Source: a virus
Taxonomy: Duplodnaviria > Caudoviricetes
Length of the DNA: 64,000 nt
Virus record (IMG/VR): IMGVR_UViG_2974673286_000001
Coordinates: 89,269 to 153,268 of that record
Strand: one strand, 5' to 3'
The translations under genes were made by a program, and so were the position numbers. Of the stretch, positions 3,082 to 14,939 are shown piece after piece. Numbering within the stretch: position 1 is the stretch's first letter; the number at the start of each line of letters is the position of its first letter. The notes under the pieces are model-generated. The model was not told the origin of the DNA. It ran no database searches and saw only the letters and a list, made by a program, of their open reading frames with translations.

Positions 3082-3257
3082 AGTACCTTATATTGCAGGA
3101 GAACATGGTTGATGATGATGGGATTGTTATTTTCGAGGCGGATATTCCTTATGCAGTAGAATATGAAAGTATAATGAATGAAAATGAAGTAGAAGTTCTT
3201 TTGGAAGAGATATGGGTAGACTATACAATATTTCATACCGTACAGGAGGAGATTTAA
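3078..3257 (+). CDS. Small acidic hypothetical protein (59 aa)
   Basis: GTG start with GGAGG; [14 protein letters not shown]...; stop overlaps next ATG (TAATG). Confidence 0.65.
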
Positions 3258-4027
3258 TGTTACACACTACGCAGATTAGGATGGTGGGAACAGGATCGGC
3301 GTTCTCGAAAAAGTTTTATAATAACAGCGCTTTAGTTACATTCACAAATGGCTACAACTTACTTATTGACTGCGGACACTCTGTACCGAAAGGTCTTCAT
3401 GACGCAGACATCCCGTTAGAAAGTATTGATGGTATCCTTATCACTCATACGCATGCAGACCACATCGGAGGCTTAGAAGAAGTAGCCTTGTATAATAAAT
3501 TCGTTTTAGGTGGAAGAAAAATTGATCTCCTCGTACCAAATACGCTAGTAGAATCCTTATGGGAGAATAGCTTAAAAGGTGGACTTCGTTATTCAGATAC
3601 GTATGATGATCTTAGTTTAAGTGATTATTTCACGGTCCGCAGCTTAAAAACGTTTACCTCGGGGGCAGCCCGCACACAACTTGAAGAGAATATAGCTATC
3701 AAACTATACCCCACATTCCATGTTTCGCATATGGCTAGTTATGCTGTAGGGCTAGAGGATCGTGGAGAGGATAAGGTATTCTATTCCTCAGACACTATAT
3801 TTGACGAATACCTCATTGACTATGCTCTAACCTACTCGTGGGTCTTTCACGACTGCCAGTTTTTCACTGGAGGGGTACATGCTAGTCTAGATGAGCTTCT
3901 TAACTATATTCCTGAAGAGGATCAAGACCGAGTGTTCCTCATGCACTATGGAGACAACATGGAAGACTTCTTTACTAAAACAGGTCGGATGAGGTTTGCG
4001 TTGCAAGGACGGACATACATTCTTTAA
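3257..4027 (+). CDS. apyc1: Anti-Pycsar protein Apyc1, MBL-fold cCMP/cUMP phosphodiesterase
   Basis: [31 protein letters not shown] (HxHxDH), YSSDT, FHDCQ, VHA, LMHYGD; AGGAGG RBS before ATG 3257; matches my recollection of Bacillus phage Apyc1. Confidence 0.9.
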
Positions 4028-10914: not shown

Positions 10915-12252
10915 ATGTCATTCCAAGACTTATTGAATGAAGAATCCAAAATTTTAGACGAGCAGCAGAAAGGCGAAGGTGTAAAATATCCAAAAACAAA
11001 GCATGATCGTTTGTTCTTTGGTAAAAACTCTCCGCAGCACTTCGTTCAAGTGCTTCCGGCAGCTGACTTACATAGCAAATTTGCCGTACCAACAAGAAAA
11101 ATCTTTTTGTCTACTAGAAGTTCTCAAGGTAAAGAAATTAATGCCAACTTCACACTAGATGCTTCACCTAACCCGGGCTCTTTACTGGAGCAGAAAATTA
11201 CTGAGTGGGCAGATAGACAAATGATCCCTTCCGGTTATGGCGGACAGCAAGCACCTCGTGTCGTATACTTACTCAACGTTGTTAAGGTAGGTCAAGATAA
11301 CGCAGGTAACTGGTTCCAAGAACGAGATGAACAAGGTAACCTTGTGGTACGTGTTCTTGAATTACCTCAGTCAGGATACCGTAACCTAGTTAATAAATTG
11401 AAGGACCCTTTACTTAATCAGTCTAAAACTGATCTTTCTTTCCTTGACATTAACAGAGCATCACCTATTCGTATCTCTAAACCAGCTAAGAATCAAAAAG
11501 AGTATCCAGTAGAGGTTTACTCCTCTATTAGCCTTCCGCCTCTCGGTCAAGGATGGGAGAGCCAACTTGAGGACTTATACGCTCAGGCTACACCAACAGA
11601 AATGCTTGAAAATGGAGCTAGCTGGGTACAAGCTTTCATTGACATGAAAGAAGGTAGAAAACCAAACGGAGGCGGAAGTGCTGCGCCACAGCAACCACAG
11701 GTTAACCCATTTGCACAGCAACCGCAAGCCAACCAGTTTGCGCCGCAACAACCGCAGACTAATCAGTTTACACAGCAACCGCAAGCCAACCAGTTTGCGC
11801 CGCAACAACCGCAGACTAATCAGTTTGCACAGCAACCGCAGGTTAACCCATTTGGACAACCGCCACAGGCGGAGCCGTTTGCACAACAACAGCAGCAACC
11901 AGCTCCACAGATGCCAAATACGCCTGTAATGAATACACCGCAGCTCCCACCAACAGGAGGGTATGCAGCACAACCGAATATTGAAATGCCTACAGGTATG
12001 AATCAAGCTCCATTACAGACTCCACCTGTAGCTCAACCGGAACAGCCTGCTGCTCCACAGGACGGTTTAATTACTGATGCACTTCCTGAAGACTTTGGTA
12101 TCTCGGCTCCACAAACACAGGCAGCACCAATGCCACCACAGCAGCCGAACGTACCAGCTCCAGAAAATCAAGATAGACCAGCGGCAGACACATTCAATAC
12201 TCAAGGTCTGCCAGATATTGATGCGATGCTGGATAACGAGCTTGGTAGCTAA
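10915..12252 (+). CDS. Putative single-stranded DNA-binding protein with Q/P-rich linker and acidic tail
   Basis: gp32-like N-terminal region, low-complexity linker, C-terminal DIDAMLDNELGS; recA context. Confidence 0.65.
   Translation: MSFQDLLNEESKILDEQQKGEGVKYPKTKHDRLFFGKNSPQHFVQVLPAADLHSKFAVPTRKIFLSTRSSQGKEINANFTLDASPNPGSLLEQKITEWADRQMIPSGYGGQQAPRVVYLLNVVKVGQDNAGNWFQERDEQGNLVVRVLELPQSGYRNLVNKLKDPLLNQSKTDLSFLDINRASPIRISKPAKNQKEYPVEVYSSISLPPLGQGWESQLEDLYAQATPTEMLENGASWVQAFIDMKEGRKPNGGGSAAPQQPQVNPFAQQPQANQFAPQQPQTNQFTQQPQANQFAPQQPQTNQFAQQPQVNPFGQPPQAEPFAQQQQQPAPQMPNTPVMNTPQLPPTGGYAAQPNIEMPTGMNQAPLQTPPVAQPEQPAAPQDGLITDALPEDFGISAPQTQAAPMPPQQPNVPAPENQDRPAADTFNTQGLPDIDAMLDNELGS
11687..11860 (+). 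repeat. Intragenic tandem repeat (57-bp unit twice plus partial copies)
   Basis: CACAGCAACCGCAAGCCAACCAGTTTGCGCCGCAACAACCGCAGACTAATCAGTTT at 11714 and 11771. Confidence 0.9.
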
Positions 12253-12260
12253 AATGAATA

Positions 12261-12286
12261 GAGCCTAGTTTAACGACTAGGCTTTC
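12261..12286 (+). terminator. Hairpin/weak terminator after SSB
   Basis: AGCCTAGT...ACTAGGCT followed by TT. Confidence 0.55.
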
Positions 12287-12313
12287 TATATCAAATACAT
12301 ACAGGAGGAAGTT

Positions 12314-12682
12314 ATGGAAGAGTTAAAACATGAGTTACTGTCTAATGAGCATACGCAAGTGTTTCATGAAGAGGAAGATGAAATGGAGTTCAATGCCCCT
12401 CACCATTTTGTGGTGGTTCCTGCCAAGGGGGAGGGTTTTGTACCTACACTTGCAGAGATAGATTTTCAATCAGGTCCAATCAAAGAAAACGGTGTTAATG
12501 GAGTTATGAATGAGGACCTCCTCGCAATTGTTATTACTCGTCTACAGCATTTTCAGAATAGTGAATTTAGTTGCCGGGAGAATGAAATGGCACTTACAAA
12601 ATTAGAAGAAGCTCTTATGTGGCTCAATAAGCGTAGAGACGAACGAAAACAACGTGGCGTATTAGGTACAAACGAGAAGTAA
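12314..12682 (+). CDS. tad1: Thoeris anti-defence protein Tad1 (immune-signal sponge)
   Basis: IDFQSGPIKENGVNGVMNEDLLAIVITRLQHFQ...FSCRENEMALTKLEEALMWLNKRRDERKQRGVLGT is the Tad1 family signature; AGGAGG RBS. Confidence 0.9.
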   Translation: MEELKHELLSNEHTQVFHEEEDEMEFNAPHHFVVVPAKGEGFVPTLAEIDFQSGPIKENGVNGVMNEDLLAIVITRLQHFQNSEFSCRENEMALTKLEEALMWLNKRRDERKQRGVLGTNEK

Positions 12683-12704
12683 TTCAACACTGGAGGGAAC
12701 AAGA

Positions 12705-13907
12705 TTGGCTAAGAAAAAACAACATAATAAAAAATCAGTAGAGCTAAACTTACAGGAGCTAGGAGAAGATGTAGGCTTAACTTTGCTTAGAGATTCCGAT
12801 TATGCTATGGTATTTGACCGTTTACCTCTATTCCTACCGAAGATTGATAAGCAGTTCGGAGGAGGTCTCCCATTTGGACGTATGGTGGAGGTAGCAGGAA
12901 AGAACGCAGGAGGTAAATCGACTCTTGCTTTCCACGCAGCTAGGGTAGCTACAAAGCTTGGTTGTATTGTAGTACTAATTGACGTAGAAGGCACAGCAGA
13001 TCGAGTTCGCCTAGCTCATTTGGGAGTAGATATTAACAGTGTTTTTGTTAAGCAGCCTGACGAGTCTAAGGGAATCCGCCTTACTGTAGAGGAAATTGGT
13101 CGTACAATCGAGAGCACCCTAGAAGTGTTCAAGAGTAAGTACCCTGAGGTGCCTGTCATTTACATCTGGGACTCCCTAGGGCAAACTCCTTCAGAAACAG
13201 AACTGGAAAAAGATTATGGAGAGCACAATGTAGGTGCCCGAGCTAAAGCGATCACTCAGCTCATCACTAAAATCGCCCCTCAACTCTCTGAAACTAAGTC
13301 TATGCTGCTAGCAATTAACCAAATTCGAGATGACATCGGGGGTAACCCTAAGTTTGCTACAGTAAAAGTTCCGGGAGGGAAGTCTTGGGAACACTTTGCT
13401 TCACTTCGTATTGAAATTAAGAAGAAGAATGCAATTACAAAAGGAGATACCAAGATCGGACACATCATGGGCGTAAAAGTCAACAAGTCAAAAGTGTCTC
13501 GACCACATACTGAAGAGAATGCATACCTCATTTCTGATAACGGCATCGACTATGAATATAACATTGCAAAAATGGCTGAAGACGCCAAGGTTCTTGGAGG
13601 AACTACGCAGAGTTACGAATACATAGACTCAAATGGAGAACGACATAAAAAGAAGAAAGATGACTTTATTGAGTGGATGCGTACTCCAGAAGGGCAGCAT
13701 GTTCGTGAGGAACTGTTGAACAAGCTTGTAAGTATTGAGTTCCCTGAAGGTTATGTCGCACTCAAGAATAAGACATTGGACATCTCTGGTTGGATTGACA
13801 CTGTTCATGAAGTCGGGCTAACTCCTATGTCTGAACTGCCTGAGAGCACTGGTTCGGATACAGATGATATTTTAGCAGAAGTACATAATGAGATTAACGG
13901 GGAGTGA
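12705..13907 (+). CDS. recA: RecA/UvsX-like recombinase
   Basis: GGGLPFGRMVEVAGKNAGGKST Walker A, IDVE, IWDS, INQIR, PGG. Confidence 0.93.
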   Translation: MAKKKQHNKKSVELNLQELGEDVGLTLLRDSDYAMVFDRLPLFLPKIDKQFGGGLPFGRMVEVAGKNAGGKSTLAFHAARVATKLGCIVVLIDVEGTADRVRLAHLGVDINSVFVKQPDESKGIRLTVEEIGRTIESTLEVFKSKYPEVPVIYIWDSLGQTPSETELEKDYGEHNVGARAKAITQLITKIAPQLSETKSMLLAINQIRDDIGGNPKFATVKVPGGKSWEHFASLRIEIKKKNAITKGDTKIGHIMGVKVNKSKVSRPHTEENAYLISDNGIDYEYNIAKMAEDAKVLGGTTQSYEYIDSNGERHKKKKDDFIEWMRTPEGQHVREELLNKLVSIEFPEGYVALKNKTLDISGWIDTVHEVGLTPMSELPESTGSDTDDILAEVHNEINGE

Positions 13908-13954
13908 GGCTAACGCCTCCCCCTTCACTAAAATTTGAAAGGGTGGGTTCAGGA

Positions 13955-14320
13955 ATGCAGCAAAAGAATAACAACCATGGTGATATTGTAGCAAACACCC
14001 TACAGTACTACCGGGAAAGAACAAGCAGCAGCGGCACCCGAACCCCTAACCCCTATCTGGACATCAAGAAGGAGCTAGAGAAAACCATGAAAGAGGGTAA
14101 GCGTGTCTTAATTGATATTAGAGACTCTTACAGCGTTCAAACGGTGGTCTTGCGCTTCGACCGTGTTTATGACAGATGGGCAAAGGGGAGTTCGGTTTGC
14201 TATTTGGAAGGTAAAGAAGTTGAGGTGCCCTATACAATCCATTACTCTGACATCATTTGCAGTCGAATGAAAGTCAAGGTAATCACGGAGGGGGATAACC
14301 CATTTGAGCAGAGACATTGA
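13955..14320 (+). CDS. Conserved hypothetical protein between recA and sigma
   Basis: ORF with RBS; core-gene position. Confidence 0.7.
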   Translation: MQQKNNNHGDIVANTLQYYRERTSSSGTRTPNPYLDIKKELEKTMKEGKRVLIDIRDSYSVQTVVLRFDRVYDRWAKGSSVCYLEGKEVEVPYTIHYSDIICSRMKVKVITEGDNPFEQRH

Positions 14321-14939
14321 GAAAGAGCAAGATCAGATACTGAACGGAAATCGTTTTATGGTAAACACTAGTGAGACACGGGGAGTATTCCTTCGGGATG
14401 TGGATAAGCTCATGCACCAGTACCGGAACTTGCGGTTAAGTGTCTTTAACCAGTATAAAGACTCCCTACCAGACCCTGTATCCCAAGACGAGCTTAGAAG
14501 TTACATAGATGAACAGTTTGTCCGCCTTGTCAAAGAGTATGACATCAATGGTCCCGTAGATTTCCCGGGGTATATTAAGACAAAGCTCACCTATCGAGTG
14601 AAGCATTCTTATATCAAGGGAGAGTACAGAGATCGTCATAGGGTGTTTGTTACCCGTAATGATTTCGATGTTTCTAACCTGATTGAGAAAACTCCTCTTA
14701 TTGATGAAGAGCTAGATTACTATGAAGTACTGGAATACGCTTTACATGATGTCAAACTCACAGAGCTTGAGAAGGAAATTCTGTTTTATATCCTGCAAGA
14801 GATGACTGATGCCCAGATAGAAAGAAAAGTAAAAGAGAACCACAGGCAGGATAAAGTTAGTGCAGCCTGTATTAGAGACACACTAAAGAACATGCAGATG
14901 TTCTTGAAGACCAAGTTACAAGAGGCTCTAGAGGGGTAA
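14304..14939 (+). CDS. Phage RNA polymerase sigma factor (late-type)
   Basis: QDELRSYIDEQFVRLVKEYDINGPVDFPGYIK region-2-like segment; region-4-like C-terminus. Confidence 0.75.
   Translation: MSRDIEKEQDQILNGNRFMVNTSETRGVFLRDVDKLMHQYRNLRLSVFNQYKDSLPDPVSQDELRSYIDEQFVRLVKEYDINGPVDFPGYIKTKLTYRVKHSYIKGEYRDRHRVFVTRNDFDVSNLIEKTPLIDEELDYYEVLEYALHDVKLTELEKEILFYILQEMTDAQIERKVKENHRQDKVSAACIRDTLKNMQMFLKTKLQEALEG

Follow-up and report, generated by a model that had tools for sequence, protein, structure and literature searches.

The stretch analyzed here, referred to below as the window, comprises 64,000 nucleotides of a Caudoviricetes genome; in the IMG/VR record IMGVR_UViG_2974673286_000001, a virus sequence of 153,268 bp with an estimated completeness of 97%, it spans bases 89269-153268. 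On its plus strand, between the genes for a single-strand DNA-binding protein (SSB) and a RecA/UvsX-like recombinase, the window carries a small gene with an ATG start (12314..12682, stop codon included) whose 122-aa product belongs to the Tad1 family, phage proteins that act as sponges for immune signals of the Thoeris defense system. A Shine-Dalgarno sequence, AGGAGG, is read directly from the DNA on the same strand (12303..12308), 5 nt upstream of the ATG, and is also kept in the tad1-bearing relatives 035JT004, SBSphiJ7 and SPG24. A preliminary description made from the letters alone had proposed a 122-aa Tad1-family gene with its own strong ribosome-binding site (RBS), three sequence motifs and a position inside the SSB-recA block. 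The open reading frame (ORF) and its RBS are exactly as it proposed, and all three motifs were found in the directly read translation, as FQSGPIKENGVNGVMNEDLL (residues 51-70), FSCRENEMALTKLEEALMWLNKRRDERKQRGVLGT (residues 85-119) and HH (residues 30-31). The PF24729 profile finds this one gene in the entire 153,268-bp record, so that tad1 is single-copy.

The two flanking genes bear out the proposed placement. Upstream, on the plus strand, the SSB gene (10915..12252, 445 aa) matches phrog_1867, annotated as “single strand DNA binding protein” (E=1.1e-144); a Pfam search with this ORF gave no matches, and syntenic genes are annotated as SSB in SPG24 and Grass. Downstream on the same strand, the recombinase gene (12705..13907, 400 aa, TTG start) matches PF00154 (E=3.5e-35) and phrog_97, “UvsX-like recombinase” (E=2.5e-84), and is preceded by its own ribosome site, GGAGGG, at 12692-12697. 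By megablast, the aligned parts of the genome are ~76-83% identical to Nitunavirus-type Bacillus subtilis phages, including Grass, SBSphiJ2 and the Goe phages. The genes around tad1 are typical of Nitunavirus-like Bacillus phages, and its product is a small phage-encoded protein, as are Tad1 proteins.

Sequence comparisons consistently led to Tad1. In a phmmer search against all chains of the Protein Data Bank (PDB), the best match was Tad1 of a Clostridioides mangenotii prophage (CmTad1, 8KBB; E=6.8e-37 over residues 3-121 of the query), and the PDB entries for Tad1 of a Clostridium botulinum prophage (CbTad1; 7UAV, 8KBG and others) matched at E=3.4e-18 to 4.3e-18. Eight sequences were retrieved at E<=1, six of which are Tad1 chain sequences. 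Five of the six are named “Thoeris anti-defense 1”; the remaining one, 7UAV, is labelled “ABC transporter ATPase”, but the structure search described below lists it as a Tad1 from a Clostridium botulinum prophage. The profile search against Tad1/Acb2 that the preliminary description had put forward as a check returned the Pfam family PF24729 (Acb2_Tad1_hairpin) at 30.7 bits, above the cut-off of 27, and phrog_2428 was matched over the full length (E=7.6e-50). Homologues were detected by tblastn in 196 of 50,697 phage records, with at least 80% query coverage in 100 of them. In a collection of 5.8 billion proteins, 856 of 860 candidates matched at E<=1e-5, and PF24729 was present in all of the best 120 of these 856. 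Taken together, the E-value to a Tad1 chain, the phrog_2428 match and the 856 matching candidates exclude a chance resemblance.

Two other assignments were considered and rejected. The hairpin family PF24729 is shared with Acb2, a hairpin-only protein of ~90 aa; no Acb2-named chain was found among the eight sequences at E<=1, and the predicted model has a Tad1-type beta-sheet. A Pfam match to CRISPR_Cas2 (E=0.02; 15.5 bits against a cut-off of 23.8) overlaps the hairpin and was treated as noise.

The predicted structure leads to the same family. An AlphaFold2 model was built on an alignment of 121 sequences, namely the window protein and the best 120 of the 856 matches (55-98% identical by BLASTP), which describes the subfamily and not all Tad1 proteins. 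The model is confident (mean predicted local distance difference test score, pLDDT, 93.6; predicted template modeling score, pTM, 0.82) and has the Tad1 arrangement of an N-terminal antiparallel beta-sheet (predicted strands 14-18, 31-36 and 47-51) followed by two long helices (66-81 and 88-114). In a Foldseek search of the PDB the top match was apo-CmTad1 (8KBB; E=2.7e-14, query-normalized TM-score, TMq, 0.93), and CbTad1 complexes with the cyclic ADP-ribose isomers 1''-3' and 1''-2' gcADPR were matched at TMq 0.85-0.86. Twenty matches had E<=0.001, the best 17 of which are all Tad1 chains; the match following these 20 had E=0.52.

We then carried the positions named in the Tad1 papers over to the window protein through HMMER alignments to the PDB chains. 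Six of the seven published gcADPR contacts are kept: residues F82, F87, N92, R109, R113 and G120 of CbTad1, which form the pocket for gcADPR and cyclic dinucleotides, correspond to the identical residues F80, F85, N90, R107, R111 and G118. The cyclic-trinucleotide contacts of CmTad1, R88 and T95, are identical and carry the same numbers, and of the hexamer-interface residues K96, E99, M102, W103 and K106 are identical, with Q98 replaced by E98. Across the 121-sequence alignment, F80, N90, R107, R111, E99 and K106 are invariant (121/121), G118 is present in 120/121, K96 and W103 in 119/121 each, T95 in 113/121 and R88 in 109/121; at position 85, 93 sequences have F, 26 have Y and two have W.

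The gene also occupies the slot of the founding member of the family. In SBSphiJ7 (OM982674.1, 110354-110782), a 142-aa gene annotated “Tad1” shares 64% identity with the window protein at 100% query coverage (tblastn) and lies between genes of 1266 and 1197 nt that align with the SSB and RecA genes of the window; the same conserved hairpin is found upstream, with the same RBS layout. RefSeq gives the order [quoted passage not shown] for SPG24, and 035JT004 carries in this slot a 121-aa gene, 69% identical and labelled hypothetical. Among eight phages of the SBSphiJ group, SBSphiJ7 alone was reported to escape Thoeris, and it alone carried tad1; tad1 expressed alone abolished Thoeris defense and its knock-down restored it, and the protein was described as inhibiting type I Thoeris and sequestering the signal gcADPR (bioRxiv 10.1101/2022.05.03.490397). 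Within a known phage group, the window gene is thus a positional orthologue of this characterized anti-defense gene. That the 122-aa protein is a Tad1 family member, as the preliminary description had called it on the basis of motifs and position, is supported alike by its sequence, Pfam domain and predicted fold, by the ligand-contact residues and by the genomic slot. In itself, one more confidently assigned Tad1 changes little.

The assignment is useful for annotation. The exact 122-aa protein is already held in NCBI, UniRef and nr, where the look-up showed no name, and several homologues in public phage records are not labelled Tad1. Some of them are still “hypothetical”, and many Tad1 homologues of ~120 aa bear the labels “structural protein”, “putative structural protein”, “HNH endonuclease” or “ABC transporter ATPase” (for example in KX961630.1, OK499977.1, JX094431.1, EU081845.1 and MW354667.1). 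A 2025 survey reports having collected 1,587 non-redundant Tad1 homologues from IMG/VR v3 (PMC12393519).

From homology, we consider it very probable that the protein acts as a sponge whose ligands include gcADPR. Tad1 has been described as sequestering gcADPR (bioRxiv 10.1101/2022.05.03.490397) and its homologues as also binding the cyclic di- and trinucleotides of the cyclic oligonucleotide-based antiphage signaling system, CBASS (bioRxiv 10.1101/2023.11.15.567273), both in line with the background from which the preliminary description had argued. By analogy with the solved relatives, the 122-aa chain would fold into the antiparallel beta-sheet and two-helix hairpin, protomers would pair as dimers, and three dimers would assemble into a hexamer of D3 symmetry. 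Each of six dimer-interface pockets could then take up 1''-3' gcADPR, the signal of type I Thoeris, or 1''-2' gcADPR, or alternatively a cyclic dinucleotide, through aromatic stacking by F80 and F85, base reading by N90, the arginines R107 and R111 of helix alpha2, and a lid (residues 116-122) with the backbone of G118. Two further pockets on the three-fold axis, lined by R88 and T95 of neighboring protomers, may accommodate cA3 and cAAG, the cyclic trinucleotides of CBASS. Held without degradation, these signals would leave ThsA and the CBASS effectors switched off, and the infected cell would not abort. With its own RBS, tad1 would be expressed within the replication/recombination block. Oligomeric state, ligand binding, ligand spectrum and anti-Thoeris activity in vivo are all predicted here by homology.

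Several points weigh against this reading. The seventh gcADPR contact, R57 of CbTad1, is I56 in the window protein; the same isoleucine occurs in CmTad1 and in 118/121 close homologues, which suggests a trait of the subfamily and not decay. In helix alpha2 and the C-terminal lid, the combination R108/K112/L117 (codons at window positions 12635-12664) occurs in only 3/121 sequences, namely the window protein and the homologues P0002 and P0004; the usual residues are T (118/121), E (116/121) and E (115/121), respectively. Along the chain, these positions are neighbors of R107 and R111, the arginines of the pocket, or lie within the lid, and through the change two acidic side chains are lost and two basic ones gained. 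Beside the pocket residues, such a change could alter the affinity or the ligand spectrum. Moreover, the cyclic-dinucleotide spectra of Tad1 homologues are reported to differ sharply (bioRxiv 10.1101/2023.11.15.567273), so that the CBASS part of the ligand range is not predictable in detail, and in a survey of 84 sponges from three families 19 homologues reportedly inhibited none of the seven systems assayed (PMC12393519). That R108/K112/L117 signifies a shifted ligand spectrum seems unlikely to us, because CbTad1, with the same lid leucine, still binds gcADPR.

A related and still less probable alternative is that the protein is a true Tad1-fold sponge whose main target in vivo would be CBASS or some other nucleotide signal, with gcADPR bound weakly by a pocket retuned at helix alpha2 and the lid. 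The rarity of the three residues close to the pocket arginines, seen in 3/121 close homologues only, is consistent with this, and so is the VLGTN end of the window protein, which is as in CbTad1 and unlike that of CmTad1 or SBSphiJ7 Tad1: the corresponding lid leucine of CbTad1, L119, is described as stacking on the guanine of 2',3'-cGAMP, and the preference among cyclic dinucleotides as flipping between homologues (bioRxiv 10.1101/2023.11.15.567273). However, all six core gcADPR contacts are intact, CbTad1 is reported to bind gcADPR well with the same leucine, and the homologues reported in the same preprint all bind cyclic ADP-ribose isomers as well as cA3. We consider a primarily CBASS-directed sponge improbable.

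Could the protein instead belong to the virion, either in a capsid role or as a protein packaged and injected, and not act as an intracellular sponge made during infection? Some of the ~120-aa homologues, in phages of the B. cereus group and in Lactococcus phage 1706, are labelled “structural protein”, and the minor capsid protein gp184 of phiKZ (8Y6V chain I) matches residues 44-119 of the window protein with its residues 151-226 (E=6.9e-8). A preprint calls gp184 a Tad1 that is packaged and injected (10.1101/2025.11.23.690004); in the paper on the phiKZ capsid structure the words Tad1 and Thoeris do not occur. Yet gp184 is a protein of 230 aa, processed by the head protease, whose N-terminal part is wedged in the capsid vertex complex, whereas the window protein is a stand-alone chain of 122 aa that lacks this extension of ~150 residues. 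Its gene lies in the replication/recombination block and not among structural genes, the founding 142-aa orthologue is reported to work when expressed alone in cells (bioRxiv 10.1101/2022.05.03.490397), and packaging would in any case be compatible with sponge function. We therefore regard a virion role in place of the sponge as very improbable. That tad1 is an inactive relic, kept only through its position inside an essential gene block, is extremely improbable: the gene is dispensable, as four close relatives cleanly lack it at the same junction, but its frame is intact, its RBS strong, its key residues conserved and its model confident, a 98%-identical copy (P0002) exists on another ~153-kb contig, and the C-terminal half recurs without change (62/62) in P0004.

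Beyond what the preliminary description had contained, the locus yields modest leads, which we would not call discoveries: a repeat-bounded indel, a mosaic of modules, and the rare helix/lid variant described above. The tad1 cassette at the SSB-recA junction is cleanly polymorphic, being either present or absent. A gap of 83-84 bp separates the SSB and RecA genes in the tad1-less relatives SBSphiJ2, 043JT007, 278BB001 and Grass (empty-site stretches compared: L005:4255-4365, L007:387-497, L008:387-497 and L009:14178-14288). Alignment of the occupied with the empty sites revealed a short, imperfect direct repeat on the plus strand, with one copy at 12304..12312 that overlaps the RBS and another at 12674..12680 made up of the last two tad1 codons and the first base of the stop codon. 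All four empty sites retain a single copy, which resembles the one at the coding end (the final two tad1 codons with the stop) and thus favors loss of tad1 over gain. The indel looks like a deletion by microhomology, with the limit that repeat copies of 7-9 nt that are nearly identical cannot prove the direction. The empty sites show two junction variants one base apart, so that either one event or two could have produced them.

Within the coding sequence, the gene is a mosaic, as seen when identities to the window protein are computed half by half (P0004, P0006 and P0007 compared). The 142-aa protein P0004, from a 5.8-kb contig, is identical in 43/60 residues of the N-terminal half and 62/62 of the C-terminal half, and has the long loop of 20 residues typical of SBSphiJ7. 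SBSphiJ7 Tad1, with the long loop, has 39/60 and 50/62 identical residues in the two halves, and the protein of 035JT004, with the short loop, 29/59 and 51/62. Together, these identities and loop forms indicate that all four combinations of a short- or long-loop N-terminal module with two C-terminal modules exist in nature. With clean empty sites in the same phage group and a tractable host, they amount to a natural experiment on the ligand specificity of Tad1. More speculatively, the window protein could represent a rare sub-lineage with a re-charged alpha2 helix and lid, whose C-terminal module has been exchanged by recombination between long- and short-loop N-terminal modules, the slot between SSB and RecA serving as a hot spot of sponge-module shuffling that retunes the captured signal. 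We consider this unlikely. If true, candidates for the captured signal would include 2',3'- or 3',2'-cGAMP, as for CbTad1, whose lid has the same leucine, and signals not so far assigned to Tad1.

The preliminary description had also remarked that the phage carries Apyc1, an anti-Pycsar phosphodiesterase for cyclic mononucleotides with a metallo-beta-lactamase (MBL) fold, and this was borne out. The ORF at 3212..4027 on the plus strand matches PF23023 (Anti-Pycsar Apyc1) with 201.5 bits against a cut-off of 50 (E=2e-59). Although the longest ORF opens at 3212, Met16 at 3257 is probably the real start, giving a gene at 3257..4027, because the protein from Met16 is identical in 256/256 residues to PDB chain 7T28 and the homologue in Grass has 257 aa. 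Chain 7T28 is given as Bsp38 Apyc1 (PMC9117128), and two further chains labelled Apyc1, 7U2S and 7U2R, were matched at E=4e-57 and E=4.4e-49. The metal-binding HxHxDH motif of MBL proteins is present as HTHADH. Apyc1 would break down cCMP and cUMP, the signals of Pycsar, while Tad1 would sequester its ligands. By analogy, this phage, equipped with both a sequestering and a degrading counter-measure, may cover up to three defenses: Thoeris, CBASS and Pycsar. A second sponge was searched for in the 153-kb record (~97% complete), where PF24729 matched tad1 alone and PF11195 (Tad2-like) matched nothing.

Directly 3' of the SSB stop codon lies a terminator-like hairpin with an 8-bp stem and a 6-nt loop (12262..12283, listed on the plus strand). 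The structure scan called it on the minus strand, with eight pairs, four of them G-C; on the plus strand it is followed by a T-rich tail. This hairpin is common to relatives with and without tad1, and four tad1-less phages match the stretch 12252-12296 at 98-100% identity. Between the end of the SSB gene and the start of tad1, a scan for sigma-70-type promoters, which does not extend to phage-specific promoter types, gave nothing promoter-like on the plus strand; its total was four sites against 6.4 expected. The C-terminal part of the SSB (window positions 11650-12000) contains a tandem-like repeat rich in Q and P, of the form (F)(A/T)QQPQ(A/T/V)NQF, from which spurious long ORFs also arise in other frames and on the complementary strand. 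On the 3' side of recA, a conserved gene of unknown function (13904-14320; phrog_1089, E=1.5e-49) is followed by one for a phage RNA polymerase sigma factor (14304-14939; phrog_1025, E=8e-87), in the order also seen in SPG24, Grass and 035JT004.

The Tad1 family and the SSB-tad1-recA slot are already in the literature, as are the mechanism of the family and its reach to both Thoeris and CBASS. Of the known systems close to the window protein, one that shares its genomic context is SBSphiJ7 Tad1, for which binding of cA3 and cAAG, 3',3'-cGAMP and cUA is reported in addition to gcADPR, the latter with an affinity of ~0.2-0.3 uM (bioRxiv 10.1101/2023.11.15.567273). A four-way alignment that included SBSphiJ7 Tad1 has 74 invariant columns, which take in the residues of the pocket, of the cyclic-trinucleotide site and of the interface. 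The window protein has 20 residues fewer, a loop in the beta-sheet part being absent after residue 39, and carries R108, K112, L117 and N120 where SBSphiJ7 Tad1 has T, E, E and H.

Of the solved structures, CmTad1 (8KBB, 8KBC and 8KBD) is the best relative, at ~50% identity, with the same length class and coinciding residue numbering. Both proteins have R88, T95, K96, E99, M102, W103 and K106, as well as I56 in place of R57 of CbTad1; they differ at position 91, which packs on the bases of cA3 (A91 in CmTad1, E91 in the window), at position 98 (Q98 and E98, respectively), and in the lid (IEGTSE for CmTad1, VLGTNEK for the window protein). CbTad1 (7UAV, 7UAW, 8SMD and 8KBE-H) is ~38-40% identical. 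At the positions of its F82, F87, N92, R109, R113, G120 and L119 the window protein has the same residue in every case, and the two share the C-terminal VLGTN, whereas R57 and the loops of the beta-sheet part differ. With Acb2, the window protein shares the two-helix hairpin domain jointly modelled as PF24729, to which, in the predicted model, it adds the N-terminal beta-sheet of Tad1; Acb2 is described as a hexamer that binds two cyclic trinucleotides (bioRxiv 10.1101/2023.11.15.567273).

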